A stretch of 64,000 nucleotides of DNA from an uncultured delta proteobacterium (GTDB lineage: Bacteria; Desulfobacterota; Binatia; Binatales; Binataceae): the NCBI GenBank assembly GCA_963699705.1, contig CAVOUW010000001.1, positions 141,572 to 205,571 on the forward strand. The letters are read 5' to 3'. The translations under genes were made by a program, and so were the position numbers. Position 1 is the stretch's first letter; each line of letters starts with the position of its first letter. Below the pieces are notes generated by a model, which worked only from the letters and a program-made list of their open reading frames with translations, was not told the DNA's origin and made no database searches. Shown one piece after another: positions 3,255 to 53,940 of the stretch.

Positions 3255-3312
3255 GCGGGATGCCAGCAACCTAACCCCTAACCCCTTCCCGAGCGGAAGG
3301 GGAACAAGAAAG
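3255..3312. repeat. module-A palindromic repeat (CCTAACCCCTAACCCCTTCCC-gagc-GGAAGGGG), reverse orientation
   Basis: A stem CCCCTTCC/GGAAGGGG of 8-9 bp is followed by TTAGGGGTTAGG on the opposite strand. The same unit recurs at 9975, 13025, 26395, 31478, 41850, 44828 and 53860. Confidence 0.8.
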
Positions 3313-4462: not shown

Positions 4463-4940
4463 CGGCGCGGGAGGTAGGCGCTTGCTTGCGTTGATTGATG
4501 AGGTCTTCGAGTTCGTGCATGAACTCGTCGATATCTTTGAACTGGCGATAGACCGACGCGAAGCGCACGTACGCGACCTGATCGATCTTGTGCAACTCGT
4601 TCATCACCGCCGCACCAACCGCGCTGCTGGGGACCTCGCGTTCGCTCTGTTCGGTCATCGCGGTCTCGATGTTGTTGGCGATCTGCTCGATCGTTTCCAT
4701 CGAGACCGGCCGTTTCTCGCATGCGCGTTTGAGCCCGGCGATTATCTTGGCGCGGTCGAACGGTTCGCGGCGATCGTCTTTCTTGACGACCATCGGCGCC
4801 GCTTCCTCGACCCGCTCGTACGTAGTGAAGCGACGCTTGCACGACCCGCACGCGCGCCGACGCCGAATCAGCATGCCATCGTTCGCGAGCCGCGAATCGA
4901 TGACGCGATTTCCACGATGGCGGCAGAAGGGGCACCGCAT
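4437..4940 (-). CDS. nrdR: transcriptional repressor NrdR
   Basis: 167 aa. [17 protein letters not shown]...[16 protein letters not shown] is the NrdR zinc ribbon, and it is followed by an ATP-cone. Confidence 0.92.
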
Positions 4941-9962: not shown

Positions 9963-9969
9963 CCAACTC

Positions 9970-10020
9970 TTAAATCCGGTTCCCCTTCCCGCGCGGGAAG
10001 GGGTTAGGGGTTAGGTTCTT
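9970..10020. repeat. module-A palindromic repeat (GGTTCCCCTTCCC-gcgc-GGGAAGGGGTTAGGGGTTAGGTTC)
   Basis: A 9-bp perfect stem with a 4-nt loop sits between the convergent GH1 and nth genes. On the opposite strand it supplies the last codons (EPNP) and the TAA stop of the nth ORF. Confidence 0.85.
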
Positions 10021-10684
10021 TGCGCCGCACCTTCCCCACGCCAATCCGCGGGCAATCGTTCGCGAATGCGCACACCTCGCACTGCGGCTTGCGCGCGATG
10101 CAAATCTGCCGGCCGTGCAGGATCAGCCGCATCGAGAATGGCGTCCAATCTTTCGGCGGCAGGATTTTCTGCATGTCGATCTCGATCTTCGCGGGATCAG
10201 TGTCCTTCGTGAATCCCAGCCGATACGTCAGCCGGCGCACGTGCGTATCGACCACGAACCCCGGCCGGCCGAAAACATGCCCGAGGATCACGTTCGCGGT
10301 CTTGCGCCCCACGCCCGGAATTTTCACCAGCGCGTCCATCTCGGACGGAACCTCGCCGCCGTAATCCTCGACAATCTTCTTCGCCGCGCCCATCAGCGAG
10401 CGCGTCTTCTGCCGAAAGAATCCGGTCCTGACGATTAACTCTTCGACGTGTCGCGGATCGGCCGCCGCCATCGCGCGCGCGTCTGGATACTCTTTGAATA
10501 GTCGCGGCGTTACCAGATTGACGCCGACGTCGGTGGACTGTGCGGAAAGAATCGTCGCCGCCAGGCATTGCCACGGCGTTTCGAAATCAAGGCTGATGCG
10601 CGCCTCGGGATAGAGCTTCGCCAGCCCGCGCGAGACGCGGCCTGCGCGCTTCTTCAAATCCGCGATCGATTCGCGCGCCGCCAT
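10004..10684 (-). CDS. nth: endonuclease III (Nth)
   Basis: 226 aa. It has the HhH-GPD motif (VKIPGVGRKTANVIL) and the 4Fe-4S cluster CxxxxxxCxxCxxxxxC (CIARKPQCEVCAFANDC). Confidence 0.92.
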   Translation of the reverse strand: MAARESIADLKKRAGRVSRGLAKLYPEARISLDFETPWQCLAATILSAQSTDVGVNLVTPRLFKEYPDARAMAAADPRHVEELIVRTGFFRQKTRSLMGAAKKIVEDYGGEVPSEMDALVKIPGVGRKTANVILGHVFGRPGFVVDTHVRRLTYRLGFTKDTDPAKIEIDMQKILPPKDWTPFSMRLILHGRQICIARKPQCEVCAFANDCPRIGVGKVRRKEPNP

Positions 10685-13014: not shown

Positions 13015-13235
13015 CACGCGCGAAGAACCTAACCCCTAATCCCCTTCCGCGCGGGAAGGGGAACCAGAGAGTTTCATTTGGAGCGCGCCGCCTATCCCCC
13101 ACGCCCCCCTTTCATGAAAAGGGGAACAGAAAAGAGGCGGCGCGTTCTATCTTTCAACTTTTAACACTGGGTGCAGGGGTCACCCCTGCCGAAGGAAGCG
13201 TGAAACCCACCGCGGGTTTCACATTCAATTAGTGA
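13015..13235. repeat. composite mosaic repeat (modules A-B-C, reverse orientation)
   Basis: 13025-13065 is an A unit (CCTAACCCCTAATCCCCTTCC-gcgc-GGGAAGGGGAACC). 13085-13130 is a B-like unit (CCTATCCCCCACGCCCCCCTTTC-atga-AAAGGGGAAC). 13181-13232 is a C unit (GGTGCAGGGGTCACCCCTGCCGAAGGAAG-cg-TGAAACCCACCGCGGGTTTCA). The same three modules occur in the opposite order at 26268-26445 and 53655-53900. Confidence 0.85.
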
Positions 13236-14294
13236 TAACCCTTCCCTCACCCGCGCGACATCGCCTTGACGATTGCCGCTCGTTACCTCGCTCGTTGATG
13301 CTTTCCCGCCTACGTCGCGGGTCAGGACTTTGCCCGCGCGCAGCACCGACGCTGTTGCCGCGCGGATTTTGTCGCCGGCACTGCGATGTCCCAAATAGTC
13401 GAGCATCATCGCACTCGACAGGATCATCGCGATCGGATTCGCGACGCCTTTGCCCGCGATATCCGGCGCCGTCCCGTGCACCGCTTCGAAAATCGCGCCC
13501 TTGTCGCCGTAGTTCGCGCCCGGCACGAGTCCCAATCCTCCCACCAGCCCCGCGCACAAATCCGAAACGATATCGCCGTAGAGATTTTCCAGCAGCAGCA
13601 CGTCGAAAGATTCCGGATGCGTCACCAACCGCATGCAGGCCGCGTCAACGATTTGCTCCTGGTAGCGAATTTCCTTGTAGCCGGTTGATACCGCGCGCGC
13701 GCATTTCAAGAACAGGCCGTCCGATAGCTTCATTATGTTGGCTTTATGAATGGCGGTGACCGATTTGCGCCGATGCGTCCGCGCGTAGTCGAACGCGAAT
13801 TTCGCGATTCGCCGAGACGCGCGCGCCGTGATTACCTTGATACTCTCGACCACGCCGGGCGCGATCTCGTGCTCGATTCCCGAATACAGGTCCTCGGTAT
13901 TCTCGCGCACGACGATCAGATCGACGTTGCTGAACGGCGTATGCACTCCCGCAAAATTCATCGTCGGGCGCACGTTGGCGTAGAGGTCGAAGGTGCGCCG
14001 CAGATACACGTTGATCGAGCGCCATCCCTCGGCCACGCGCGTCTCGAGCGGCCCCTTGAGCGCGACTCCGGTACGTTTGAGCGATTTGATAAGCGCATCG
14101 GGCACTGGAGTTCCGAAGCGTCGAAACGCGTTCATCCCCGCCGCTTGGCGATCCCAAGCGATCGCGACGCCGGTCGCCTCGATCACCGCCAGCGCCGCGT
14201 TCACCACTTCCGGCCCGACCCCATCACCGGGAATCAACGTCACCGCGCGAGGGTGATTTTTCTGCGAGGCCGTAGTCTGGCTCTTCTTCTTCAA
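13161..14294 (-). CDS. isocitrate/isopropylmalate dehydrogenase family enzyme (NAD-IDH-like; could be tartrate/D-malate dehydrogenase)
   Basis: 377 aa. [12 protein letters not shown]...[20 protein letters not shown] is the ICDH/IPMDH fold. The last ~25 residues ([21 protein letters not shown]) are a read-through of the module-C repeat. The true C-terminus is probably earlier, or the repeat provides the stop. Confidence 0.8.
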
Positions 14295-23619: not shown

Positions 23620-23625
23620 TCTGCG

Positions 23626-25381: not shown

Positions 25382-26263
25382 ATGAAGACGCTCCGCACTG
25401 AGACGCGCAACGGCGTCGGTATCATCACGCTCACGCGCGCCGACGAGTACAACACGATCACGCCCGACCTTCGCGATGAGCTTGGCGACGCGATCGACCT
25501 GGCCGACGCCGATCACGACGTCCACGTAATCCTGCTGTGCGCGGAAGGTCCAGCATTCTGCGCCGGCTACGCACTCGCAGGATCGACGCGCGCGCAAGCC
25601 GGTGAAGGTTCGCGCAAGCGCGCGTGGGACTCGGTCGCCGATTACGGGATGATCTCGCAATACGTCAACGTGTACATGAAACTCTGGTACGCGCGGAAAC
25701 CGACTATCGCCGCCGTACACGGATGGTGTATCGGCGGCGGCACCGACATGGTGTTGTGCGCCGATTTGATAATCGCAGGCGAGTCCGCGTCGTTCGGCTA
25801 TCCACCGTCGCGCGTATGGGGCACGCCGACCACCGCGATGTGGGTCTATCGGATGGGCCTCGAACGCGCCAAGCGCTACCTGCTGACCGGCGACGAGATC
25901 CCCGCGCCGGAAGCCGCGCGCATCGGACTAATCCTGGAAGCGGTGCCCGACGACGAACTCGACGCGCGCGCGACCGCACTTGCCGAGCGAATGGCGCGAG
26001 TTCCCACGAATCAACTCGAGATGCTCAAGCTCCTATGCAATCACACCGCCGAAAATATGGGACTGGCGACGTCGCGGCTGGTCGGCTCGCTCTTCGACGG
26101 AATCGCCCGGCATACGCAGGAAGGCCTCGATTTCGTCGCGCGCGCACAAGCCGCAGGCTTTCGGCAAGCCGTCCGCGAGCGCGATGACCCATTCGGCGAC
26201 TACGGCTCAGGCCCGCGCTCAAAAAATCGCGCGGTCAAGAAAAGCGGCAAGAAAAAAACTTAA
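25382..26263 (+). CDS. enoyl-CoA hydratase/isomerase family protein
   Basis: 293 aa. GVGIITLTRADEYNTI...AAVHGWCIGGGTDMVLCADLIIA is the crotonase fold. Confidence 0.85.
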   Translation: MKTLRTETRNGVGIITLTRADEYNTITPDLRDELGDAIDLADADHDVHVILLCAEGPAFCAGYALAGSTRAQAGEGSRKRAWDSVADYGMISQYVNVYMKLWYARKPTIAAVHGWCIGGGTDMVLCADLIIAGESASFGYPPSRVWGTPTTAMWVYRMGLERAKRYLLTGDEIPAPEAARIGLILEAVPDDELDARATALAERMARVPTNQLEMLKLLCNHTAENMGLATSRLVGSLFDGIARHTQEGLDFVARAQAAGFRQAVRERDDPFGDYGSGPRSKNRAVKKSGKKKT

Positions 26264-26264
26264 T

Positions 26265-26450
26265 CTAATGTGAAACCCGCGGTGGGTTTCACGCTTCCTT
26301 CGGCAGGGGTGACCCCTGCACCAAGTGAGAGAAATTTCTGTTCCCCCTTTCCCTCGGGAAAGGGGGTGAGGGGGATAGGACGGGCGGAATGGTTGCCTCA
26401 ATCCGGTTCCCCTTCCCTCGAGGGAAGGGGTTAGGGGTTAGGTTGCCGGG
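26265..26450. repeat. composite mosaic repeat (modules C-B-A, forward)
   Basis: C is TGAAACCCGCGGTGGGTTTCA-cg-CTTCCTTCGGCAGGGGTGACCCCTGCACC. B is GTTCCCCCTTTCC-ctc-GGGAAAGGGGGTGAGGGGGATAGGAC. A is CCGGTTCCCCTTCCC-tcga-GGGAAGGGGTTAGGGGTTAGGTT. Confidence 0.88.
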
Positions 26451-27455: not shown

Positions 27456-27644
27456 GCCATCACCTATGCTGCTAATCGTAGCATAATGCGTGAAAACTCG
27501 TGCATGCCGTAAGTCAAATGAATGCCCCAAGAATTCGTGAAACTTTCGGTTCCCTCAGCAACATTTTAGTGCGGATGAGCTTGCGTCAGCCAGCCGAAGG
27601 TGATTTGACGCGCTCACTATTACCAAGCATTGTGCTTTGCGACT

Positions 27645-30287
27645 ATGTCGCGATTCAGCCGCCTCGAATTCCTCGCGTCCCTACCGTTATGCGTACTGAG
27701 TGTTGCGATGATATTTCTCTCCTCGTGCGGTAACGACGGCAGTTCCGCAACGTCTGAGACCGCCGGCGCGTGCGCGCCGCTGCCACCCGCCGCCAATTCA
27801 GATTTCCTGGTTCATCTGACTCCCTTCATGAACCACCTTTGCTACCAGAAACAGAACTGGCAGCATGACGCGCAGGTGCGCACCAGCGACGGAGTTCATC
27901 CATACGTCAGGGTCTGGTACTCGCCGTTGCTGTTCGACTGGATCACCGTCAAGAACCGCACCGGGCCAGTGCCCGACGGCGCGATGGTCGTCAAGGAGCA
28001 GTTTCACAGCCCAACCGATCCGTTGGTCGAATGGACCGTGATGGTCAAAGATTCGAACCTGTCGTGGGACGGATGGTACTGGGCCGACCTGGTCAGTCCG
28101 ACACCGCGGAATCCGAATGCGGTTCCGACTCCGTCGCCGGGCAGTGGATGCGCCGAGCCGCAGGTCTTTTTCAACGGCGTTGGATTGTACTGCCTGAACT
28201 GTCATGCGTCGGCGATCGCCAATTCGGGAACCTATTCGAGTACTGCTTACCTGAATCCACCGAGCGTCGCCGCGCTCGCGGATGCCTCGGCGATGATCGA
28301 TGACATGCACAACGTTTCGTCGCGGCAGTCGGCGGAGATGTCCGCGGCCGAGCAAGCTCCGATGTTCGTCAATCGCGTACCGAATTCGGTTTTCAGCAAT
28401 CTTCGATCTTTGCCGTCCGCCTCGCCGCCGTGCATGGTCTCGCAAGCATTCGATCACGTGGTCCCGGCCGCGAAGTCGGCCGGCGGCCCCGAGGAGTTTC
28501 TCACCTCTGATCAATGCGCGAACTGTCACGATGCGACCGGGACGCTCGCCGGCTTCATCCCCAACATGATCTTCGGCGGGCAGAGTCCGACGCCCGCAAA
28601 CCTCTCGCAGTTCGGCGAATGGCGTTACTCGATGATGGGCCTGGCGGGACGCGACCCGATCTTCTTTGCCCAGCTCGAGACTGAGTCAACAGTGCATGGG
28701 CATTTGGCCGGCCACGCTGACGGCGCAGCTTTCGTTCAGGACTTCTGTCTTCGATGCCACGGCGTGATGGGTCAGCGTCAATTTCATATCGATAATGGCA
28801 ACGGGCCGAACACTTTGCTCACGCGCGCCGTGCTGCAGGATCCCAAATCCAAATACGGCGCACTCGCGCGCGACGGCGTCTCATGCGCGGTCTGCCATCA
28901 TATGACCGACGATAAACTTGCCGACCCGTCCACCGACACCGGCCTGTTCAAGGTTGGCCCCGCGAGCGAAGTTTACGGACCGTTCCCATCGGACACTGAT
29001 TCCACCGGCGCGAAGACCGGCGACAGCGTCATCCCGCTACCGATGCAGAACAGTATGGGCATCACGCCGATGGAAGGTTCCCAGGTCCAGAACGCCAGCC
29101 TGTGCGCGTCGTGCCACACGATCTTGTTGCCGGTGTTCGACGCCGACGGCAATCGGGTGATGGAAAACGGTGAGCCGAAATCCGAGTATGAGCAGACCAC
29201 TTTCTTCGAATGGCTGAATAGCGGCTTCATTACTATTCCGTGCCAGCAATGCCACATGCCCGACAGCTACCAGGGCAATCCGCTGCAATTCAAAATCGCG
29301 AATATCGAGGACGATACATTCCCCGCTGTGCCGGACCATGGACCATCGACGCGCCTGCCCGACGCCGATCTGATTATGGAAGCGCGCACTCCGTATCGGC
29401 GTCATCAACTGCTCGGGATCAACCTGTTCGCACTCGAGATGTTCGATCAGTTCCGCGCCGAGCTCGGGCTTTTCAAATTCGATCCGAACTTGCCCGGTCC
29501 TTTGGCCAAGCAGATCTTCAGCCAGAAGACCGCGGTCGCCGAAGCTGTGACGCAAGCCCAGACCGGCACCGCCAACGTCATGATTCTGTCGGCGACGAAA
29601 ATGAGCGGCGCGCTGCAGGCGGACGTCGAGGTGGATAATCTCGCGGGTCATAACTTTCCCTCTGGAGTGAGTTTTCGACGCGCGTTCTTGAACTTTCAGG
29701 TGCTCGACGCCGGTGGAAACGTGCTGTGGGCATCGGGCAATACCAACTCCGACGGCGTCATCGTCGACAACTCGGGCAATCCGCTAGCTACCGAATTCTT
29801 CAGCCCGGCTCAGCAGACCTATCAACCTCATTTCTGGACGGAGAATCCAATCACCAGCGACAACCAGGTCGCGATCTACGAAGAACTGGCGACCGATCCT
29901 GAAGGCCTGCTGACGACCAGCTTTTTAAGTCTCGACCACAAGGTCAAAGACAACCGCATTCAGCCTGTGGGAAGATCGTTCAACGGCCCCAACGCCGGCA
30001 TCACGGCTCCGGTAGGCACCGGCGCCGACCCCAGCTACAAAAACGGATGCGGCTGCAGCATGGTCCGCTACGAAATCCCGCTACCCACCAACGCCGTCGC
30101 AGTGAATGCGACGCTGTACTATCAAAGCATCCCGCCCTACTACCTACGCCAACGCTCCGAAGACGCCCACGGCCCCGACACCGCGCGCCTGATCACCTTC
30201 ACAAACCAACTAAACACCAGCCAGTACCCAGAAATCGCCAACTGGAAACTGAAAATCGCGACTTCAGGACCGGTGAATATCCGATAG
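27645..30287 (+). CDS. lipoprotein multihaem c-type cytochrome (at least 6 CxxCH)
   Basis: ~880 aa. It has a signal peptide with lipobox (MSRFSRLEFLASLPLCVLSVAMIFLSSCGN). The CxxCH motifs are CLNCH, CANCH, CLRCH, CAVCH, CASCH and CQQCH. Confidence 0.85.
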   Translation: MSRFSRLEFLASLPLCVLSVAMIFLSSCGNDGSSATSETAGACAPLPPAANSDFLVHLTPFMNHLCYQKQNWQHDAQVRTSDGVHPYVRVWYSPLLFDWITVKNRTGPVPDGAMVVKEQFHSPTDPLVEWTVMVKDSNLSWDGWYWADLVSPTPRNPNAVPTPSPGSGCAEPQVFFNGVGLYCLNCHASAIANSGTYSSTAYLNPPSVAALADASAMIDDMHNVSSRQSAEMSAAEQAPMFVNRVPNSVFSNLRSLPSASPPCMVSQAFDHVVPAAKSAGGPEEFLTSDQCANCHDATGTLAGFIPNMIFGGQSPTPANLSQFGEWRYSMMGLAGRDPIFFAQLETESTVHGHLAGHADGAAFVQDFCLRCHGVMGQRQFHIDNGNGPNTLLTRAVLQDPKSKYGALARDGVSCAVCHHMTDDKLADPSTDTGLFKVGPASEVYGPFPSDTDSTGAKTGDSVIPLPMQNSMGITPMEGSQVQNASLCASCHTILLPVFDADGNRVMENGEPKSEYEQTTFFEWLNSGFITIPCQQCHMPDSYQGNPLQFKIANIEDDTFPAVPDHGPSTRLPDADLIMEARTPYRRHQLLGINLFALEMFDQFRAELGLFKFDPNLPGPLAKQIFSQKTAVAEAVTQAQTGTANVMILSATKMSGALQADVEVDNLAGHNFPSGVSFRRAFLNFQVLDAGGNVLWASGNTNSDGVIVDNSGNPLATEFFSPAQQTYQPHFWTENPITSDNQVAIYEELATDPEGLLTTSFLSLDHKVKDNRIQPVGRSFNGPNAGITAPVGTGADPSYKNGCGCSMVRYEIPLPTNAVAVNATLYYQSIPPYYLRQRSEDAHGPDTARLITFTNQLNTSQYPEIANWKLKIATSGPVNIR

Positions 30288-31806: not shown

Positions 31807-31893
31807 CGGGGTCTCCCTCGTTCATATTCGTTGGTCTATAGCATAACGTTGACAATCAGGGATGGCGCCCACAGAATCTCGCCGATGGATGGA

Positions 31894-32367
31894 ATGTCGA
31901 CAGTCACCCAGCTCTCGAAAAAACCTCGATTTCCCGGCCTTGTCCTGCTGGCGATAGCCTCGGCATCGCTGATCTTCGCCGGATGCGGCCTCGCTTACCA
32001 GGCTGGGACCCGAATCAAGGCGACGCGGATGTCGGATTCACTGCAGGTGGGGCAAACCTCGCCCCAAGTACACCATTCGTGGGGTGAACCGGATATCCGG
32101 ACCTATTTGCCGGGCGAGACCGAGGTCTGGAGCTACCCCTATAAGCCGAATAGTAACGATGTTACAGCCGCGCTGCTGTATACCTCGTCCAAGGACGGCG
32201 ACAAGGGGACCTTCCTCGATTTGAAGTTTGTGGAGGGTAAACTCGTCTCATGGCAGGAAGCCGAGCATACGCTGCCGCCGAAGGGGCATACCGGCATCGG
32301 TTTGGGGATAAACCAGGGGCCGATTGGGAACGGGACCCAGACGCAGCCTGGAGCGGTTCACTACTAG
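31894..32367 (+). CDS. lipoprotein with BamE/SmpA_OmlA-like domain
   Basis: It has a signal peptide with lipobox LIFAGCG, and a VGQTSPQVHHSWGEPD...EVWSYPY motif resembling SmpA/OmlA. The start is chosen among three in-frame Met codons. Confidence 0.65.
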   Translation: MSTVTQLSKKPRFPGLVLLAIASASLIFAGCGLAYQAGTRIKATRMSDSLQVGQTSPQVHHSWGEPDIRTYLPGETEVWSYPYKPNSNDVTAALLYTSSKDGDKGTFLDLKFVEGKLVSWQEAEHTLPPKGHTGIGLGINQGPIGNGTQTQPGAVHY

Positions 32368-32565: not shown

Positions 32566-34281
32566 ATGGCGACCGCGCGCAAGAGTTTCGAGGCAATTCT
32601 GCTCGACCGATCATGGGTCTCGGCCCAGGATCTTGACAAGGCGCGGCAGCGTAAAAAGCCCGGACAGGAATTGGCCGACGTGCTGGTCGAGATGGGTGCG
32701 CTGGAGCCCCAACGCCTCGCACGCGCACTCGCGCAGGAATATCGGCTGCCATTCCAGGCCCATATCGACGAAAACGCGCTCGATCCCAAGCTCGTTTCCA
32801 AGGTTCCGATCAACTACGCGAAGAAGAACCGCCTGCTGCCGCTCTCGAGCATCGACGGCACGGTGACTATTGCGATGGCCGATCCGGCCAACTTCGAGCC
32901 GCTCGACGATTTGCGAATCCTGTTCGGCGCGCAGATAAATGTGCTGATCGCGCCGGCCGAAGTAATCGCCGAGGCGATCAACCGCGCGTACGACCAGGCG
33001 TCGGCCACTTCAGCCGAGGATCTGATGATCGATCTGCAAGAAGAGCGGCTCGACGTGGTCGCCAACGAACTCGCATCGGAGCCGCTGGACTTGCTCGAGT
33101 CCGACGATTCGGCGCCGATCATCAAGCTCGTCAACGGCGTGCTGTCGCAGGCGGTCAAGGATCGCGCGTCGGACATCCACGTCGAAGTTTTCGAAAAAGA
33201 AATGGTGGTGCGCTTCCGCGTGGACGGCATGATGTACGACGTGCTGTCGCCGCCCAAGCGGTTTCAGCCCGCGATCACCTCGCGCGTCAAAGTTATGGCG
33301 GGCCTCAATATCGCCGAGAAGCGGCTGCCGCAGGACGGCAGAATCCGCCTGCGCATCGCCGGCCGCGATATCGACTTGCGCGTCTCGTCGATCCCGACCG
33401 CGTTCGGCGAGCGTATCGTGCTGCGACTGCTCGACCGCGCGCAGGCCGTGGAAGCCATCAACCTCGACCATCTCGGTTTTTCGGGAGACAATCTTCAGCG
33501 GCTCGATCGCTTAATCCGGCAGAGTCACGGGATCATCCTGGCGACCGGGCCGACCGGCTCGGGCAAATCGACGACGCTGTACGCGTGCCTGACCAGAATC
33601 AACTCGCCTGAAAAAAATATCATCACGATCGAAGATCCGATCGAGTACCAGTTGCGCGGCGTCGGCCAGATGCAAGTGAATCCGAAGATCGAGCTGACCT
33701 TCGCCAGCGGCCTTCGCTCGATACTGCGCCAGGATCCCGACGTGATCATGGTCGGCGAAATCCGCGACAGCGAAACCGCCGAAATCGCAATCCAGGCCGC
33801 GCTCACCGGCCATCTGGTATTCTCGACGCTCCACACTAACGACTCGTTCGGCGCGGTGACGCGCCTGGTCGATATGGGAATCGAGCCGTTCCTGGTTTCG
33901 TCGTCGATTCTCGCCGTGCTCGCACAGCGCCTGGTCCGCAAGCTCTGCGTCGATTGCCGCGAGCCTTACAAGGCCAGCGAAACCGAGCTCGCGCGAATCG
34001 GACTCAAGGGCGTCGATGCGGAGAACAAGATCTGCCGTCCCAAGGGATGCCGCAATTGCCGCAACACCGGCTATCGCGGCCGAATGGCGATCCAGGAACT
34101 GATGATCATGGACGACGAAATTCGCTCGCTCGTGATGCAGAACGCCGACGCCGCGACGCTGCGCCGCAAATGCACCAGCGTTGGGATGACGCTGCTGCGC
34201 CAGGACGGTGCGGCGCGCGTGTTGCGCGGCGAGACTTCGATCGAAGAGTTGCTGCGGGTCACGCAGGAAGACATCGACTAG
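32566..34281 (+). CDS. gspE: type II secretion system ATPase GspE
   Basis: 571 aa. It has the N1/N2 domains, Walker A GPTGSGKST, the Asp box and a tetra-Cys zinc motif (CVDC...CRNCRNTGYRGR). Confidence 0.9.
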   Translation: MATARKSFEAILLDRSWVSAQDLDKARQRKKPGQELADVLVEMGALEPQRLARALAQEYRLPFQAHIDENALDPKLVSKVPINYAKKNRLLPLSSIDGTVTIAMADPANFEPLDDLRILFGAQINVLIAPAEVIAEAINRAYDQASATSAEDLMIDLQEERLDVVANELASEPLDLLESDDSAPIIKLVNGVLSQAVKDRASDIHVEVFEKEMVVRFRVDGMMYDVLSPPKRFQPAITSRVKVMAGLNIAEKRLPQDGRIRLRIAGRDIDLRVSSIPTAFGERIVLRLLDRAQAVEAINLDHLGFSGDNLQRLDRLIRQSHGIILATGPTGSGKSTTLYACLTRINSPEKNIITIEDPIEYQLRGVGQMQVNPKIELTFASGLRSILRQDPDVIMVGEIRDSETAEIAIQAALTGHLVFSTLHTNDSFGAVTRLVDMGIEPFLVSSSILAVLAQRLVRKLCVDCREPYKASETELARIGLKGVDAENKICRPKGCRNCRNTGYRGRMAIQELMIMDDEIRSLVMQNADAATLRRKCTSVGMTLLRQDGAARVLRGETSIEELLRVTQEDID

Positions 34282-34305
34282 ATCCGCGTTTAAGTTTTTT
34301 CACCG

Positions 34306-35535
34306 ATGCCAGTATTTGCTTATCGAGGTCTTGGCGCCGACGGTCGCTCCGTCAACGGCGTAGTTGACGCCGACAGCGCGCGCACCGCACGCGGCAAGTT
34401 GCGCGCGTCGGGGATTTTTCCGACCGACCTCAACGAGGAGTCCAACGCCGCGCAACGCTCGGCCGCCAAGCGCGAGTGGCTGCCCTCGCTCTGGCGGCGC
34501 AAGATGCCGGCCTCGGATCTCGCGCTGCTGACGCGGCAGTTGAGCGCGTTGCTCGGCGCGGGCGTGCAGCTGGTCGATGCGCTCAGCGCGCTCGCCGATC
34601 AATCGTCGCGCGCCGCGACCAAGCGGATGCTCTCTCAAGTGCGCGAGCGCGTGCGCGAGGGCTCGTCGCTGGCCGACGCGCTGACCAATCATCGCGACGT
34701 CTTTTCAGACCTCTACATCGGGATGGTGCGTGCCGGCGAGCAGGCTGCCGCGCTCGAGGCCGTTCTTGATCGGCTGGCCGAGTACAGCGAGCGCCAGAAT
34801 GAATTCGTAACCAAGGTTCGCGGCGCGCTGACCTATCCGATCATCATGATGTGCGTCGGCACCGGAATCATGGCGTTCCTGGTGGCGTACGTGGTGCCGC
34901 AGGTCGCGACGATTTTCCAGCAGCAACATGCCGCCTTGCCCTTGGCGACGCGAATCCTGATCACCTTTTCCGGTCTCGTCACCGGCTACTGGATTCCGCT
35001 TGGCCTGCTGCTGGTCGGTATCGTCGCAGGATTCACCGCCGCGATGGCGACGCCGCGCGGCCGCCGCATCTACGACACCGCGATCCTGAAGGTGTATTAC
35101 ATCGGCCCGACCATGATTCGAATTATCTGCGCCCGCTTCGCACGGACGCTCGCAACTCTGCTCGCCAGCGGCGTCCAGTTGCTTCCCTCGCTCGACGCGG
35201 TCAAAGGCGTGGTGACCAACGGTCTGCTCAAGGACGCCGTCGAGCAGAGCCGCGAAAGTATCCGCGAGGGCCACGGCATGGCGCAGACGCTCGCGCGCAG
35301 CGGTCTTTTTCCGCCGCTGCTGATCGAGATGATCCGCGTTGGCGAGCGTTCCGGCGAACTTGAGCGGATGCTCGAGCGGGTCGCCGACAACTACGAGCGC
35401 GAAGTCTCGCACTCGCTCAGCCAGATGACCACCGTGCTCGAACCGGTGATGACGCTGGCGATGGCCGCTGTTATCGTGTTCATGATGCTTGCGGTGCTGA
35501 TGCCAATCTTCCAGCTCAACCAGTTGATGCAATGA
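34306..35535 (+). CDS. gspF: type II secretion system inner-membrane platform protein GspF
   Basis: 409 aa. Duplicated GspF domains are present (LLGAGVQLVDAL..., ...LLASGVQLLPSL...) with 3 TM segments. Confidence 0.9.
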   Translation: MPVFAYRGLGADGRSVNGVVDADSARTARGKLRASGIFPTDLNEESNAAQRSAAKREWLPSLWRRKMPASDLALLTRQLSALLGAGVQLVDALSALADQSSRAATKRMLSQVRERVREGSSLADALTNHRDVFSDLYIGMVRAGEQAAALEAVLDRLAEYSERQNEFVTKVRGALTYPIIMMCVGTGIMAFLVAYVVPQVATIFQQQHAALPLATRILITFSGLVTGYWIPLGLLLVGIVAGFTAAMATPRGRRIYDTAILKVYYIGPTMIRIICARFARTLATLLASGVQLLPSLDAVKGVVTNGLLKDAVEQSRESIREGHGMAQTLARSGLFPPLLIEMIRVGERSGELERMLERVADNYEREVSHSLSQMTTVLEPVMTLAMAAVIVFMMLAVLMPIFQLNQLMQ

Positions 35536-35573
35536 TGAATGAAAAAGTGAAAAATGCGCCGGAGGTAACTGCG

Positions 35574-36003
35574 ATGAAATCACGCCGATACAATCAGGAT
35601 GGTTTCACCCTGATTGAAATCATGGTGGTCATCCTCATCCTCGGCCTGCTCGCGACCATCGTCGTCCAGAGCCTTCGCGGCGCCGCCGACAAGGCCAAGA
35701 CGCACCAAGGCGCAGGCCGACATGGCCGAGCTCAAGACCGCACTCGATCGTTACTACCTCGACAACGGCTTCTACCCGACCACCGACCAGGGCTTGAGTT
35801 CGCTGGTTTCGCCGCCGAGCAGCGGACGCACGCCCGCCAACTACGAGGCTGGCGGTTACATCGAGCGCCTGCCGACGGATCCATGGGGCAATCAGTACTT
35901 CTACCAGAGCGATGGGAACTCCTACGCGCTGAAGTCGTTCGGCAAAGGCGGCACCGAAAGCCAGGACACTTCGGGCGTTATAGACGCCAGCCAATCGAAT
36001 TGA
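35574..36003 (+). pseudogene. gspG: major pseudopilin GspG, split by a +1 frameshift near 35700 (or an assembly indel)
   Basis: Frame 1 gives the prepilin N-terminus MKSRRYNQDGFTLIEIMVVILILGLLATIVVQSLRGAADKAKTHQ... and then becomes Arg-rich nonsense. Frame 2 (track ORF 35614..36003) gives ...KAQADMAELKTALDRYYLDNGFYPTTDQGLSSLV...GGYIERLPTDPWGNQYFYQS.... This matches the GspG body. Deleting one C in CACCAAGG rejoins them as ...ADKAKTHKAQADMAELK.... Confidence 0.8.
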
Positions 36004-36015
36004 CGGCGTTATGAA

Positions 36016-36612
36016 GTGGAGCCCGACTCAGCTTGCCCGTGCTCCATCGCGATCGCGCGCGAGCGGCGAGTCAATTTCGTGACATCCGTATCGCCCGGCT
36101 TCACGCTGCTCGAACTCGCGGTCGTGATTTTTATCATGGGCCTGATGCTGACCTTGGCGCTGCCGTATCTCGGTGGATTCCGCCAGGCGGCGCTGAAAAG
36201 CCAGGCGCGCCGGCTCGCGGGACGCGCGACTTACATGTACGACGAGGCTACCGGCCACAAACTCGTGCTGCGGCTCATCTTCGATATGGACAACAACGGC
36301 TACGCGGTCGCGCAACTCGATCCCTATGCGGTCAAGCCGGTGTTCGCGCCTGACAACAGCATGTCGGGACACCCGGTGATGTTGCCGGCGGCGATTCGGA
36401 TTCGCGACGTCACTGTCGAGGGCATCGGCACCGTCAATCGCGGCACTACCGCGACCACTTTTTATCCCGAGGGTTACGTCGATGCGACCGTGGTCCATCT
36501 CGAGGACGCATCCGGCGACGTGATGACGCTCGAAATTTCTCCGCTGACCGGCCAGGTGGCAATTATCAACGGCGACGTGATGCCCACGGGAATGCAGGTG
36601 ACCCCAAGGTGA
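36016..36612 (+). CDS. gspH: minor pseudopilin GspH
   Basis: It has the prepilin-type N-terminus GFTLLELAVVIFIMGLML. The real start is probably an internal GTG just before it. Confidence 0.75.
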   Translation: MEPDSACPCSIAIARERRVNFVTSVSPGFTLLELAVVIFIMGLMLTLALPYLGGFRQAALKSQARRLAGRATYMYDEATGHKLVLRLIFDMDNNGYAVAQLDPYAVKPVFAPDNSMSGHPVMLPAAIRIRDVTVEGIGTVNRGTTATTFYPEGYVDATVVHLEDASGDVMTLEISPLTGQVAIINGDVMPTGMQVTPR

Positions 36613-37019
36613 ATCTGCTTCGCCGCGCGCCAGGATTTACCCTGCTAGAAGTGATGGTCGCGATTGCGATCCTCGGGATCGCGCTGCTCGGCCTGCTCGG
36701 GCTGCATCATCAGAGCCTGCAATCGGTGATCCGCGCGCAGCAATCGACCCGCGCCTCGATGCTCGCGCAGGCCGTCATGACCGAAGCTGAGCTCGAGCGA
36801 TATCCGGATCTCGGCCGCAGTAGCGGCGATTTCGAATCTTCCTTCCCCCGCGAGTTCCCGGATTTCCGGTGGGAGCGCGAGGTGGCCGCATCTGGGATGT
36901 TTCCCGACGTGCGCAAGGTCAAGGTCGTGATTCGCTACGGTCCGAAGCTTTTGCAGAGCTTCTCGCTGGTCGAGTTCATGCACTCGCCGGTGCCGCCCGA
37001 TCCGAATGAGCTCCAATGA
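36609..37019 (+). CDS. gspI: minor pseudopilin GspI
   Basis: MNLLRRAPGFTLLEVMVAIAILGIALLGL. It is 136 aa and shares a 4-nt overlap with gspH. Confidence 0.8.
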   Translation: MNLLRRAPGFTLLEVMVAIAILGIALLGLLGLHHQSLQSVIRAQQSTRASMLAQAVMTEAELERYPDLGRSSGDFESSFPREFPDFRWEREVAASGMFPDVRKVKVVIRYGPKLLQSFSLVEFMHSPVPPDPNELQ

Positions 37020-37690
37020 CCAACCAACGAAAACGCATCGCCACGCATCGCGCGCCACGCGGCTTCACCCTCATCGAGATGATGCTCGCGATTGGCGTGA
37101 TGGCGCTGATCCTCGCGATGCTGGCCAGCTCGTTCAGCACCATCGCGCATAGCAAGGTGCACGCCGAAGGACGGCTGATGGTCGATCGCGAAGGACGCGC
37201 CCTGCTCTGGCAACTTACCAAGGAACTGCGCAACGCGGTGCAGACTCCGTATACCGCCAGCAACGTCGCGCTGTTCGGCGCCGGACACATGGCCGGCGGC
37301 GCGGCGGTCGATACACTCACGCTGTCCACCTTCAGCGGCGGCCATCGACGCGCACTCACCGGGATGACGCCCGAGACGATAGTTACTTACAATCTGACCG
37401 CGAATCCCGACCAACAGGGTTGGTTCGTGCTGAATCGCTCGCAGCAAAGTGGATTGCTGACCAGCAACGCCACGCCGCAAACAACGGTGCTCGCGGACAA
37501 TATACTCTCGCTTCATTTTCGCTATTTCGACGGCCAGAAGTGGGGCGAGAGTTGGGAGTCGCCCAGTCAGCCGCGCGGACGGCAGTTGCCGGTCGCAGTG
37601 GCGGTCCAGATTCAGATGGCAGCGCCCGGCGGCCGCGTGATGGACTTCGCGACCCAGGTCACCCTGCCAATGGCAATACAGCAATGGTAA
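37016..37690 (+). CDS. gspJ: minor pseudopilin GspJ
   Basis: RGFTLIEMMLAIGVMALILAML. It is 224 aa and shares a 4-nt overlap with gspI. Confidence 0.8.
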   Translation: MTNQRKRIATHRAPRGFTLIEMMLAIGVMALILAMLASSFSTIAHSKVHAEGRLMVDREGRALLWQLTKELRNAVQTPYTASNVALFGAGHMAGGAAVDTLTLSTFSGGHRRALTGMTPETIVTYNLTANPDQQGWFVLNRSQQSGLLTSNATPQTTVLADNILSLHFRYFDGQKWGESWESPSQPRGRQLPVAVAVQIQMAAPGGRVMDFATQVTLPMAIQQW

Positions 37691-38631
37691 AGCAGCTGCG
37701 AAAGAACGAGCGCGGCGTCGCGCTGCTGGCGGTTCTGCTCGGAATCGCGCTGATGACGTTGATCGTCGTGGACTTCGCCCTGACCTCGGGACTCGGATTC
37801 GTGTCGGCGGCGAATCAGGCCAACGAACTGCGCGCCAGCTACCTCTCGCGCTCGGCGGTCAATATCGGTCTCGCCCTGTTGGCGGCGGACGCGCGCGCGG
37901 ACACCAAGACGCCGACTCCGATCGACGCCTTGACCGACGTGTGGGCGGTGCCGTTCCCGCCGATGCCGCTGGAGGGCGGCACTGTCTCGTTGTCGATTGT
38001 GGATGAAGGGCGCAAGATCAATCTCAACGCGATGGTCCAGAACGGTCAGCCCAATCTGCCTGCGATCCAGAAGGTGCAGCGGCTGTTCACCATACTCGAC
38101 GTGAAACCCGAGCTGGTTCAAGGTATCATCGACTGGATCACGCCGAACAATGGCACCGGGCTTGGCGGCGGAATCGGGGATTACTACGCGGGATTAAAGC
38201 CGCCATATCAGCCGCGCTACGGCGCGATGCCGACGATTGGTGATTTGTCGATGGTGCAGGGATTCAACGAGGCAATTTTCAACCGGGTCAGCCCGTTTCT
38301 GACCGTGATGCCCGAGACCGCGGTCAACGCCAACACCGCCGCGCCGCAAGTGCTGGCCGCGCTGGAGCCGGAGTTGACCGAGGATCAGAAAATTGTGCTG
38401 GCGATAATCGACGCGCGCACGATTCGCCCGTTTACCCAGCCGACCGACATCGGAAACCTCCCGGACCTCGGTGAAATCGGACAGCGCCTTCAGAAGGACG
38501 TGATGATGCGCAGCCAATATTTTACGATTACCGGAACCGGCGTCTATGCGGGCGCGCGCAAAATCATTACCGCAACTTTCCATCGCGAGACCACCGGTAT
38601 CGGCACCCTCGCAGCTTGGCACGAAGACTAG
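37684..38631 (+). CDS. gspK: minor pseudopilin GspK
   Basis: ATG at 37684 (MVKQLRKNERGVALLAVLLGIALMTLIVVDF). It is ~315 aa with GspK-like helix-hairpin-helix-like regions. The track ORF begins upstream, inside gspJ. Confidence 0.8.
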   Translation: MVKQLRKNERGVALLAVLLGIALMTLIVVDFALTSGLGFVSAANQANELRASYLSRSAVNIGLALLAADARADTKTPTPIDALTDVWAVPFPPMPLEGGTVSLSIVDEGRKINLNAMVQNGQPNLPAIQKVQRLFTILDVKPELVQGIIDWITPNNGTGLGGGIGDYYAGLKPPYQPRYGAMPTIGDLSMVQGFNEAIFNRVSPFLTVMPETAVNANTAAPQVLAALEPELTEDQKIVLAIIDARTIRPFTQPTDIGNLPDLGEIGQRLQKDVMMRSQYFTITGTGVYAGARKIITATFHRETTGIGTLAAWHED

Positions 38632-38662
38632 GATCGAGGACTAGGGTCAATCAGGTCGCCGA

Positions 38663-40157
38663 ATGGCTCAACGAATACTTGCACTCGAGCTGGGAGCCGA
38701 TCGCGTACGCGCGGCGATGGCCGAGCGCTCGTGGAATTCCTTCACCCTCGCCGGCACCTTCGACAAGGTTCGCGCCGATGACGAGGCCGACCTGAGCGGC
38801 GCGCTCGCGCGCCTCGTGGTCGAAGCCGGGCAGCCCGATATCGTCATCTCGGCCCTGCCCGCCGACCGCGCCGTCAAACGCTTGCTCGAACTGCCGTTCA
38901 AAGACGCGCGCCGCCTGCATCAGGTGGTCCCGTTCGCTCTGGAAGAGCATCTGCCGTTCCCGGTGGATAACGGCACTGTCGCATTCACGCGCGTCGGCCG
39001 CGAGGCCGATCACACGCTGGTGATGGCCGCGATGGTGCGCAAGACCGATCTTCAGCAGCATCTTGATCTGCTGCAAAAGGCGGGACTCGATCCGAAGACC
39101 GTCACGCTCGCGCCACTGGCGCTGGCCGCGATGTTCACGCGCAACAAGAATGGCAACGGCGCCAAGCCGATGGCGCACCTCGTCGTCGAGGGCGACGAGT
39201 CGTCCACGTCGGTCGTGCTGGTCGATCTCGGAGGCACCCCGCGCGTGCTGCGTTCGATGCAAGGCGGCTTGATGATGTCCGACGGATCGGTGGTCTCCAA
39301 TGAAGCCGCCGCGCCGATTCTCAATTCGGTGCGTCAAACCCTGCTCGCCAACGGCGAAGATGCGGACCAGACCGAGGTGATCGTCGCGGGCGCGGCGGCG
39401 GCGTATCCGAAAGTGCGCGGACATGCTGTCGGACTCGCTCGCGATGTCGGTGCGCGACGGCGGCGCGTTCGACTACACCGGCATCTTCGAGGGCAGCGTT
39501 CCCAACACCGGCAAGTATTCATCGTGCCTCGCGATGCTGCTCGGCGAGATGCCGACCAAGCCGATCGATCTGATCAATTTCCGCCAGGGCGAGTTCATGT
39601 TTCGCGGACGCGTCCGCGGCGATCTCAGCCCGTTCTACACCTCGGGCATTCTCGCGGCGGCCGTGCTGGGCGTGGTCATACTTCATTTCGCGCTCGGCGT
39701 GTCCGCCAATCTTCATCGCCTCCACAAAGTCGATGCGGAAATTGCCGCAGTCGCCGGACCGGTCCTCGGCGAAACCGATCCCGCCAACGCCAAGGCGCAG
39801 TTGCAGACCGGAATCGCCAGGATGAACAAGCGGCTCAACCTCATCGGCGGCAACATGACTCATTCGCCGCTCGATACCCTGGTCGCGGTGTCGCGCGCAT
39901 TGCCGCCGCGCTTTCCAGTCCAGATGGCCGACGTAACGATCGACTCGCAAGGACTTCGCGTAACCGGACAGGCGGATTCGTTCTCGACCGTCGATCAAGC
40001 CAAGCGTGCGCTCGACCAAAGCGGCTTCTTCGGCGCGATCGAAGTCGCGCACGCGAAGGCCGGCTCCGGCTCCGATGCGAGCAAAGTTGATTTTCGGATG
40101 GACGCAAATTTCAAGGACGCGGTGCCGTCAGCTGATCGCGGCGACCTCGAAGAATAA
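38663..40157 (+). pseudogene. gspL: GspL, split by a +1 frameshift in the GCGGCGGCGGCG run near 39395-39420 (or an assembly indel)
   Basis: Frame A (38663..~39420) is the cytoplasmic actin-like GspL domain (MAQRILALELGADRVRAA...) and then ~220 codons of Arg-rich nonsense. Frame B (39423..40157) carries the TM helix (ILAAAVLGVVILHFALGV) and the periplasmic GspL C-domain. The two halves together make a normal-length GspL. Confidence 0.78.
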
Positions 40158-40801
40158 TGCTGAGAGAATGGATCGACAATTTGAGCGCGCGACTGAGGGA
40201 TTTGATCCGCCCGTGGCTCAAGCAGGCTTCGACGCGCGTCGATCCACTGATCGCACAGGCGCGCGGCCGCTACCAGAAGCTCGAACCGCGCGAACGCATC
40301 CTGGTGCAGATTGCCGGCGTACTGGTCGCGATTTTTCTCCTCTACAATCTTGTCTACACGCCGATCGTTGACCTGAGTTCCGGGCTCGAAGATAAAATCG
40401 CGCAGCGTCAACAGGATCTCGCCGACGTTCGCCGCCTCGCCGGCACCTACGCGCAGCTCAAAGCCAATCTCGCCAATGCCGAGAAGCACACGGTGCCATT
40501 GGGCAAGGATTTCTCGCTGTTCTCCGTCGTCGAAGCCTCGATGACCAAGAGTGTCGGCCGCGACAAGATTGGCTCGATCACGCCCGGCTCCGATCGTAAA
40601 CTCACCGACGGCTTCACCGAATACAGCGTGCAGTTGAAGCTCGCCAACGTGAATCTCGCGCAGTTGGTCGACGCGCTCTACGGCATCAACACCTTGCCGA
40701 TGCCGATTGGGGTCTCGAATATTCGCATCCAGCGCCGCACTCCGGACACGCATTCCTACGACGTTGACCTGACTTGTGTCGCGCTCACCAAGAACACTTG
40801 A
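40157..40801 (+). CDS. gspM: type II secretion system protein GspM
   Basis: 214 aa. It has an N-terminal TM (ILVQIAGVLVAIFLLYNLVY) followed by a periplasmic domain. It sits in the gspL-gspM-gspN position. Confidence 0.7.
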   Translation: MLREWIDNLSARLRDLIRPWLKQASTRVDPLIAQARGRYQKLEPRERILVQIAGVLVAIFLLYNLVYTPIVDLSSGLEDKIAQRQQDLADVRRLAGTYAQLKANLANAEKHTVPLGKDFSLFSVVEASMTKSVGRDKIGSITPGSDRKLTDGFTEYSVQLKLANVNLAQLVDALYGINTLPMPIGVSNIRIQRRTPDTHSYDVDLTCVALTKNT

Positions 40802-41660
40802 CGTGCGCGCGACTCCGCCGGCGCCGCAATACAATCGACCCCGCTTCCTTCGAACCGCCTACACAATCGTCGGTCTCACCCTGTTCGCCGCGTACCTGGT
40901 TTCCACCTTCCCCTACTCCCAAACTCTGACCAAGGTCCTCGCACCGATGGGCCTCGAGGTCTCCAGTGCCAGCCAGCGAGCTCACTTCCCCTTCGGCGCG
41001 CAGTTGTCGGACGTCCGCTTGATCTCGACCCGTAACGCGGCGATCAACCTGCTGGTCGAAAGCCCGGCGGTCACGATCGCGCCGTCGTATCTCTCGATGC
41101 TCACGATGCATCCTGGCGTTCGCGTGAAAGCCGCGCTCTACGACGGCGTGGTGAACGTCACGATCCGCCCCACCAAACTCGGCACCGCCATCAGCTACGA
41201 CCTCGACTCGGTGGAACTCGCGCGTCAACAGTTATTGACCATAGTGGGCGCCAGCGCCGCCGGCGCGCTCTCCGGAACCGGCAACTTGCTGCTGTCCCCC
41301 GATAACCTCGCGGAAAGCGGCGACGGCCTCCTGAGCGCCGCCGGCCTGACGTTCACCTCGGCGCTGACAAGCGCACCAATCCGCCTCGGCGACGGCCATT
41401 CAAAATTCAAACTGGATCAAGGCACATTGACAATCGAGCAACTAACAACCACCGGTGGCGACTTAACCCTAACAGCCGAAGGCACAATCCAGCTCGCCCC
41501 CGACCCTGCGCAAAGCGACCTGGCAATCCAATTCACGCTCTCAATCGCCCCCGCCGCCGCCTCTCATCTCGCACTACTACTCGCAATCCTGCCCCACCCC
41601 CCCGGCCCCCAGCCCTACCACCTGACCGGCACCCTGGCGCCCCCCGAATCAGCTAACAGC
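40776..41660 (+). CDS. gspN: type II secretion system protein GspN (the 3' end of the ORF reads into the repeat cluster)
   Basis: It has an N-terminal TM (AYTIVGLTLFAAYLV) and a periplasmic GspN-like domain. The track ORF continues to 41885, but its last ~75 codons are repeat read-through (PIPVPVGKGARGIG...PLFPLPCGKG...). The true stop is uncertain. Confidence 0.6.
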
Positions 41661-41900
41661 GAGAAACTCCAAATCACCCTTTTTCCAATTCCGGTCCCCG
41701 TCGGAAAGGGGGCGAGAGGGATAGGACAGCGCGTAGCGATGACTGTTCCCGCTGTTGCCCTTTCCTTGCGCGTTGGGATGACTTTTCCCTTGTTCCCCCT
41801 TCCTTGTGGAAAGGGGGTGAGGGGGATAGGACGACGCGATTCTGACCAAACTCCGGTTCCCCTTCCCACTATGGGAAGGGGTTAGGGGTTAGTTCCTCGA
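41640..41900. repeat. repeat cluster: a degenerate B, then B, then A modules
   Basis: 41690-41730 is CCGGTCCCCGTC-GGAAAGGGGGCGAGAGGGATAGGAC. 41795-41840 is GTTCCCCCTTCCTTGT-GGAAAGGGGGTGAGGGGGATAGGAC. 41850-41898 is CCGGTTCCCCTTCCC-actat-GGGAAGGGGTTAGGGGTTAG. Confidence 0.85.
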
Positions 41901-42141
41901 CTCTTTCGCGACGCCCACACCGTCACTTTTTACTGAACTTTTAAGCCTGATCAACCGACTCTATGTGCTGTAGTGTTGCCAATGAACCTGGCTCAACGCC
42001 CTCCATTCGCCCCACTCGCCCGAAATCGGTGAACATCCCGGTTACGGCAAAAAGCAATTTCTGACGTAACGAAGCTACCCTTGGTAGAGGACCAGTCCCC
42101 ACAACCACTACATATGGTTGAGCTGCGCCGTCGAGGGCATC

Positions 42142-44824: not shown

Positions 44825-44825
44825 C

Positions 44826-44920
44826 GCGAGGAACCTAACCCCTAACCCCTTCCCGAGCGGGAAGGGGGACCGGAAATTTTGGAGTAACCTCTTCCCATAG
44901 TGGGAAGGGGACCAGAAAAA
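44826..44920. repeat. module-A repeat (reverse) plus a second related hairpin
   Basis: GAACCTAACCCCTAACCCCTTCCC-gagc-GGGAAGGGGGACCGG is followed by CTCTTCCCA-tagt-GGGAAGGGGACC. This is the same arrangement as at 31470-31562. Confidence 0.85.
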
Positions 44921-49626: not shown

Positions 49627-50049
49627 ATGTTCAAGGGCATCAACAGAATTGTCGCATTTAGTGTCGCCGCTATTTTGGTGGTGGCGATCGGCGCTGCTGC
49701 TTACATTTCGAACAATTCGCAAACCTCCGACGCGCGGCTGGCCGCATCGGGCGATCCGGCGGCGAAATTGCGCATCACGCTCGACCCGGCGAATTTCCAG
49801 GGCACGGTGCGCGAGGCCTACGAAGTAGCGGAGAAGGATCCCGCGCTGCTGGCGCAACTGCACTGCTACTGCGGATGCGACGTTACTGACGGGCACAAGA
49901 ATCTGCTCGACTGTTTTCGCGACACTCACGGCAGCACGTGCGCGATTTGCTGCGGTGAGGCGCGCGATGCCGAGAAGATGGCGACGGCTGGCATGCCGGT
50001 CGAGCAAATTCGCGACGCACTGCGGGCGCGCTACGCGCACGGGAGCTGA
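49627..50049 (+). CDS. membrane-anchored cysteine-rich protein (putative metal-binding), hypothetical
   Basis: 140 aa. It has an N-terminal TM (IVAFSVAAILVVAIGAAAYI) and the cluster HCYCGCD...C...CAICCGE. Confidence 0.5.
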   Translation: MFKGINRIVAFSVAAILVVAIGAAAYISNNSQTSDARLAASGDPAAKLRITLDPANFQGTVREAYEVAEKDPALLAQLHCYCGCDVTDGHKNLLDCFRDTHGSTCAICCGEARDAEKMATAGMPVEQIRDALRARYAHGS

Positions 50050-53649: not shown

Positions 53650-53940
53650 GCCACTTTATTTAATTTGAAACCCACGGTGGGTTTCAAACTTCCTTCGGCA
53701 GGGGTGACCCCTGCACCCAGTGAAAAGAAATCGCAAAATGGCGAAGACGCCCTTTTGCTCTGAGGTTCTTCTCCTGTGTCATTCTTTTCTGTTCCCCCTT
53801 TCCTGCTGGAAAGGGGGTGAGGGGATAGGACGGGGGGAATAGTTGTCTCAAATCCGGTTCCCCTTCCCGCTCGGGAAGGGGTTAGGGGTTAGGTTCTTTC
53901 GCGCGCGCCGGAGGCGCGTCCTCTCCCGAAGGGAGAGGTG
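53650..53940. repeat. composite mosaic repeat (modules C-B-A plus D, forward)
   Basis: C is TGAAACCCACGGTGGGTTTCA-aa-CTTCCTTCGGCAGGGGTGACCCCTGCACC. B is GTTCCCCCTTTCC-tgct-GGAAAGGGGGTGAGGGGATAGGAC. A is CCGGTTCCCCTTCCC-gctc-GGGAAGGGGTTAGGGGTTAGGTTC. D is CCTCTCCCGAAGGGAGAGG. Confidence 0.88.

Follow-up and report, generated by a model that had tools for sequence, protein, structure and literature searches.

A single-base frameshift in gspG of an uncultured Binatus lineage is probably a consensus error of a strain-mixed metagenome assembly

The 64-kb window, by which we mean the whole stretch of DNA that was analysed, carries a type II secretion system (T2SS) gene cluster with the order gspE-F-G-H-I-J-K-L-M-N at 32566-41656, or from 31831 when an unassigned 178-aa ORF upstream of gspE (31831-32367), which gave no Pfam or NCBIfam match, is counted with it. 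The genes for the secretion ATPase, gspE (32566-34281; TIGR02533, 716 bits against a cut-off of 630), and for the inner-membrane platform protein, gspF (34306-35535; TIGR02120, 446 bits against a cut-off of 424), are intact, as are gspI (36609-37019), gspJ (37016-37690), gspK (37687-38631) and gspM (40157-40801; PF04612, NF040576), all of them on the forward strand. On the same strand, a gspH-like minor pseudopilin gene (36011-36612) is one base short near 36014 and has its ATG out of frame, gspL (38663-40157) is split by a +1 insertion, and gspN (40803-41885) overruns its natural stop as an ORF. No gspD (secretin), gspC or gspO (prepilin peptidase) was found in the scanned parts of the 64-kb window. 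Just 5′ of the T2SS region lies an 885-aa ORF (27630-30287, forward strand) with weak matches to multihaem cytochrome c families (Cytochrome_C7, Cytochrome_CBB3).

Between gspF and the gspH-like gene lies gspG, the subject of this analysis. On inspection of the sequence, a GGAGG at 35561-35565 stands 8 nt before the ATG at 35574; a second, in-frame ATG further upstream at 35532, which the gspF stop codon overlaps, is chosen by some gene callers. Translated from 35574, the first frame reads MKSRRYNQDG/FTLIEIMVVILILGLLATIVVQSLRGAADKAK (the slash marking the end of the leader), a typical prepilin N-terminus, and the 5′ segment of the gene (35574-35699, forward strand) comprises the leader MKSRRYNQDG, the cleavage/methylation motif GFTLIE and the hydrophobic N-helix, continuing to ...GAADKAK. 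The prepilin motif MKSRRYNQDG/FTLIEIMVV... scores 32.6 bits against TIGR02532 (cut-off 16.3) and 35.5 bits against PF07963. Beyond about 35700 the same frame turns into arginine-rich nonsense that ends at a stop at 36012-36014, and the body of GspG (...KAQADMAELKTALDRYYLDNGFYPTTDQGL...IDASQSN) is found in the next frame, where the 3′ segment with the T2SSG domain (TKAQADMAELKTALDRYYLDNG...IDASQSN; 35701-36003, forward strand) closes with its own stop at 36001-36003.

As deposited, gspG is therefore not a single uninterrupted ORF, its frame changing at about 35700. A frame plot based on the codon usage of the window's long ORFs places the switch between 35687 and 35704, and the two frames are rejoined by removal of any single base from about 35699 to about 35710, giving the junction peptide ...DKAKRTKAQADMAELK.... 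The rejoined protein of 142 residues scores 140.9 bits against the GspG equivalog TIGR01710 (profile positions 2-123 of 134), for which the cut-off is 88.85 bits, and also matches PF08334 (95.8 bits) and PF07963; the unrepaired fragments reach 41.0 and 81.8 bits against TIGR01710, each below that cut-off. Its closest proteins are the intact GspG of Candidatus Binatus and Binataceae MAGs, at 77-98% identity. An earlier note on this DNA had placed gspG in a T2SS operon and had read the break as a +1 frameshift that splits the leader and N-helix from the body; the first is borne out by the TIGR01710 match of the repaired protein and by the neighbouring genes, and the second, a net +1 insertion in the deposited sequence, is seen alike in the ORFs, in the frame plot and in the effect of a single-base repair. 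In function this is an ordinary GspG, encoded in an ordinary gsp cluster of an uncultured Binatus lineage.

The shift is confined to the window. At the gspG site all 22 aligned relatives have one base fewer (6 nt against 7), and a gapped pattern scan of JGI metagenome contigs returned a 6-nt spacer in eight of eight (ACGACC, CGCACC, CGGACC, AACACC or AGGACC), the window alone having 7 nt (ACGCACC). In tblastn searches, GspG crosses this position without a change of frame in 48 of 48 loci from Binataceae. The comparison with gspG orthologues that the earlier note had proposed recovers the shift in none of these 48 loci and in none of the 22 aligned relatives. The window sequence AAGACGCACC, which by alignment to relatives holds the surplus base within 35699-35703 on the forward strand, corresponds to AAGCGCACC in the loci L095 and L083, to AAACGCACC in L099 and to AAGACGACC in L001 and L094.

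The exact placement of the surplus base can be narrowed with the help of these alleles. Across 20 aligned GspG proteins, the junction coincides with the sole hypervariable codon (T/K/N/H/R) within an otherwise invariant stretch, and the codons of the relatives here are AAG/AAA-CGC-ACC or AAG-ACG-ACC. Natural alleles are recovered by removing G35699, A35700 or C35703; the identity of the base remains ambiguous among these, being G35699 or A35700 when judged by the nearest haplotypes and C35703 when judged by the ACGACC allele. Removal of one C near 35705, the repair put forward previously, does restore the frame, but its placement does not hold, since it yields K-T-H-K where the relatives have K-x-T-K: deletion of C35705 or C35706 gives His at a position occupied by Thr in at least 90% of relatives. 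Nor is there a C-run at the insertion, as had been claimed, the longest homopolymer at the site being 2 nt. Judging from the aligned sequences, the extra base is best placed at 35699-35703 and not in the CC at 35705-35706.

Two sequences are near-identical to the window, yet derive from other genomes. The first, contig_201 (ENA ERZ25039470, 111,690 bp; loci L095, L096 and L097), is 99.2-99.3% identical to the window across about 50 kb (99.3% over 21 kb for L095) and reads GCC-AAG-CGC-ACC at the gspG site, where it is intact. The second, L099, is a 1207-bp Logan assembly of run ERR10755948, which matches window positions 35494-36700 at 99.7% identity. The differences are four substitutions and just two indels, of 1 nt each; one lies at the gspG site (GCC-AAA-CGC-ACC in L099) and the other at the gspH start, and both restore the genes. 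The GspG encoded by L099 (P0243) is intact and agrees in 142 of 142 residues with the window protein minus G35699 or A35700, the 3′ segment of the window being 100% identical to it in amino acids. The nearest proxy for the raw reads thus has an uninterrupted gspG, which speaks against the authenticity of the frameshift that the earlier note had implied. Over the 142-residue coding sequence all gspG substitutions relative to L095 and L099 are synonymous, and the absence of any amino-acid difference from P0243 gives no sign of relaxed constraint, although with so few substitutions this is a weak test.

The two haplotypes also suggest where the extra base may have come from. With AAGCGC in L095, AAACGC in L099 and AAGACGC in the window, the haplotypes differ by a synonymous G/A SNP, and the window has both alleles in tandem. 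There are three SNPs in gspG between L095 and L099, and about 6 of the 1291 possible single-base insertions would mimic this tandem-allele pattern. Under a looser allele-hybrid definition, in which relatives with the ACGACC allele were omitted, 5.7% of random insertions qualify; because this simulation was too permissive and lacked the ACGACC relatives, the argument is made from the narrower count.

The earlier note had described the operon as otherwise intact. This is wrong, because further private indels affect gspL, gspH and gspN. Including the one in gspG, six window-private 1-nt indels were identified in the 64 kb, two of them in the housekeeping genes ribD and isocitrate dehydrogenase, and most lie at or beside positions that are variable among relatives. 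In gspL, at 39421-39423, the window reads GGACATG, against 6 nt in nine relatives (GGCATG, GGAATG or GGACTG). The site in contig_201 also has 7 nt, of a different sequence (GGCACTG), and both longer versions combine GGCATG with GGACTG, two alleles that occur naturally. The repaired GspL of 497 aa is full-length and scores 82.7 bits against TIGR01709, above the cut-off of 65, over residues 35-456; the exact repaired GspL, like 156-aa forms of GspG, had no match in the protein collection searched. At the gspH start, near 36014, the window has ATGA-AGTG where all close relatives have ATGAGAGTG or ATGAAAGTG, and the base lost is a G/A polymorphic base; the ATG at 36011 is disconnected, leaving an in-frame GTG at 36016 as the only possible start of a gene whose product in relatives has 200 aa. 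In gspN, a 1-nt deletion near 41635 shifts the final seven codons, the relatives ending in ...APRIS followed by a stop, and the ORF skips the natural TAA at 41654-41656 to run 76 codons to 41885 through an intergenic repeat. The gspN of L095 gives a match to TIGR04411 over positions 5-280 of 280.

The lesions outside the cluster are of the same kind. On the reverse strand, a window-private extra base near 4058 breaks ribD (3340-4462) into two ORFs, one for the deaminase (4043-4462) and one for the reductase (3340-4050); in the 99.3%-identical contig_201, ribD is a single gene of 355 aa. Also on the reverse strand, the gene for NAD-dependent isocitrate dehydrogenase (13161-14294) has a window-private extra G near 13276, by which the canonical C-terminal helix AIVKAMSRG* is swapped for an out-of-frame tail of 38 residues; the lengths of PDB homologues fit the contig_201 version. 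Four other suspects raised by the frame plot, near 1500 (NusB / LptE), near 16900 (FolE / VapB-like), at 23620 (HisI / HisG) and near 63150 (AsmA-like / DUF2064), were rejected as pairs of adjacent genes.

Some variation of a different nature was observed in passing. Three copies of a short G-rich intergenic repeat, GGAAAGGGGGYGAGRGGGATAGGAC, are present in the window (26357-26381, 41703-41733 and 41808-41838), where none would be expected by chance, and dispersed intergenic repeats of 40-80 nt, for example at 3268-3305, 9968-10028, 13158-13229, 26258-26335, 44825-44874 and 53853-53903, may be REP- or MITE-like elements. The repeat-bearing DNA 3′ of gspN (41657-42045) spans about 390 nt, compared with about 136 nt in contig_201, a structural difference between the two. 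Within a PCYCGC-domain gene (49627-50049, forward strand), the patch 49671-49752 differs from contig_201 by about 15 substitutions and a compensating indel pair, although the rest of the alignment is 99.3% identical, and could reflect local recombination or misassembly.

Sister assemblies with Flye-style contigs carry indels of their own. In contig_201, private indels are found in gspF, in gspG (at the equivalent of window position 35774), in hisG, and in the genes for phospholipase C and an HhH-GPD protein, the one in gspF leading to the call of a 569-aa GspF-GspG fusion (L095, 1596-3305). Among GTDB representatives the nearest is L001, a Microflora Danica MAG, in which 8 kb contain at least 10 private 1-nt indels; one of them, at the equivalent of window position 35948, shifts the C-terminal end of its gspG (4037-4466). 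Out-of-frame residues, RYRRQPI, also close a further GspG, P0024, which is encoded on a contig of 1.87 Mb. By the same alignment comparison, no unbalanced private 1-nt indel was found within gspG in relatives with short-read-style contig names (k127_/k141_, NODE_, Ga..., scaffold or Logan). For the Microflora Danica MAGs, Nanopore reads alone were assembled with Flye and polished with one round of Medaka, and the role of microdiversity was stressed by their authors (PMC12313526). Because sister assemblies bear their own frameshifts in gspF and gspG, GspG annotations in such long-contig Binataceae MAGs are unreliable.

Taken at the level of the sequences compared here, the extra base in gspG is in our view probably a consensus or polishing error of a strain-mixed metagenome assembly, to which we assign a probability of roughly 0.85. 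We suggest the following scenario. The metagenome contig would have been assembled from a mixture of reads, contributed by several strains that occur together and are almost identical. At the gspG site these strains would have either AAG-CGC or AAA-CGC, AAG-ACG being found in relatives a little further away, and the consensus would have retained both alleles in tandem, thereby creating a spurious 1-nt insertion. More generally, at strain-variable positions such a consensus may keep both alleles, giving an insertion, or neither, giving a deletion. Collapsed microdiversity of this kind would explain why each assembly has indels of its own, why they sit at polymorphic sites, why housekeeping genes are hit as well, and why GspG shows zero amino-acid divergence. 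The observations on which this reading draws are that the gspG indel occurs in a single assembly, being missing from the nearest haplotypes and all orthologues, that further isolated 1-nt indels occur on the same contig, housekeeping genes included, and that the sites are strain-polymorphic in gspG, in the gspL merge and at the G/A base of gspH. Against it speak the position of the insertion outside any homopolymer, unlike the classic long-read error, the origin of L095 and L099 in genomes that are near-identical to that of the window but distinct from it, and the concentration of four of the six private indels in the T2SS cluster. The contig would then come from an error-prone, probably Nanopore-only, assembly, whose reads presumably would not back the insertion. 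In the organism itself, an uncultured member of Candidatus Binatus (Binataceae), gspG is most likely ordinary and intact, and encodes the major pseudopilin of gspEFGHIJKLMN.

The principal alternative is that the frameshift is genuine and very recent, that this Binatus strain has lost type II secretion, and that gspG, gspH, gspL and gspN are decaying. The distribution of the lesions gives this some plausibility, as four of the six private indels fall inside the 9.3-kb T2SS cluster, which makes up 14.5% of the window; given the first indel, the probability of such clustering is about 0.02 by a rough estimate, and the pattern is the one expected of real operon decay. The power of detection is, however, far higher in the cluster, where up to about 20 relatives could be compared, than elsewhere, where there was one error-prone comparator or none. 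It is also true that the gspG insertion is not in a homopolymer, and that the nearest comparators are different haplotypes, so that strain-private lesions are possible. Against this, the same type of lesion is present in the housekeeping genes ribD and isocitrate dehydrogenase, GspG is without amino-acid change relative to P0243, and the inserted sequence consists of both SNP alleles in tandem. In addition, different indels occur in the same genes of sister long-contig assemblies and short-read-style contigs are without an unbalanced gspG indel, and one operon decaying independently in three lineages would be unparsimonious. We regard a genuine loss as unlikely. Its more specific form, in which the strain is in the first steps of T2SS loss, with four independent indels (in gspG, gspH, gspL and gspN) preceding any amino-acid divergence and sister strains in similar habitats keeping the T2SS, is likewise unlikely. 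Were the frameshift authentic, neither gspG nor gspL would be functional and, as the earlier note had said, the strain could not secrete by this system; this would be a modest example of secretion being lost at strain level, in a soil phylum that is uncultured, with no new mechanism involved.

A programmed +1 ribosomal frameshift, or transcriptional slippage, setting the dosage of the major pseudopilin seems highly improbable. The two frames do overlap without an intervening stop, so that a shifted ribosome could in principle yield full-length GspG, but the shift is absent from 48 of 48 relatives, the site is without a 0-frame stop or a rare hungry codon, the 0-frame being open to 36014, and on inspection of 35685-35715 the codons GCC-AAG-ACG-CAC-CAA offer no P-site re-pairing in the +1 frame; slippage is further disfavoured by homopolymers of at most 2 nt at the site. 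An equally improbable proposal, that of a phase-variable contingency locus toggling the T2SS through repeat slippage, has nothing in its favour beyond an indel in a surface-structure gene and meets a site without homopolymer or tandem repeat, at which the sole repeat is a 5-nt CCAAG flanking it and the length is constant across 30 independent contigs. With no slippery site, no repeat and no conserved shift, programmed frameshifting and phase variation are rejected.

If the gspG insertion is a consensus error, as we consider probable, its meaning is that of a data-quality flag: the T2SS and some core metabolism (ribD, isocitrate dehydrogenase, gspL and gspG) would be under-reported in the contig of the window and in sister long-contig Binataceae MAGs, unless these are re-polished or annotated in a frameshift-aware manner. 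Two SNP alleles in tandem at a strain-polymorphic site would provide a recognisable signature of this error.

Comparison with known systems places the gene and its lesion in different categories. With GspG as defined by TIGR01710 and PF08334, the window shares the GFTLIE leader, Glu+5, the hydrophobic N-helix and the T2SSG globular domain, and its gene likewise lies between gspF and gspH; it differs in that the ORF as deposited is broken by the one surplus base at 35699-35703. With programmed +1 frameshifting of the prfB/RF2 type it has in common that a full-length product would need a +1 shift, but the window is without a conserved shift site, an in-frame stop or a suitably spaced Shine-Dalgarno-like stimulator upstream. 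The lesion also resembles the residual indels of Nanopore-only Flye and Medaka MAGs, a problem that strain microdiversity aggravates; these are the same isolated, ORF-breaking 1-nt lesions, private to each assembly, differing between sister assemblies of one species, located at positions polymorphic between co-occurring haplotypes and absent from short-read-style contigs; the difference is that the error in the window is not of the homopolymer type, and the platform is one that we infer. The gspG frameshift is not novel, and belongs with the indel errors of long-read metagenomes.
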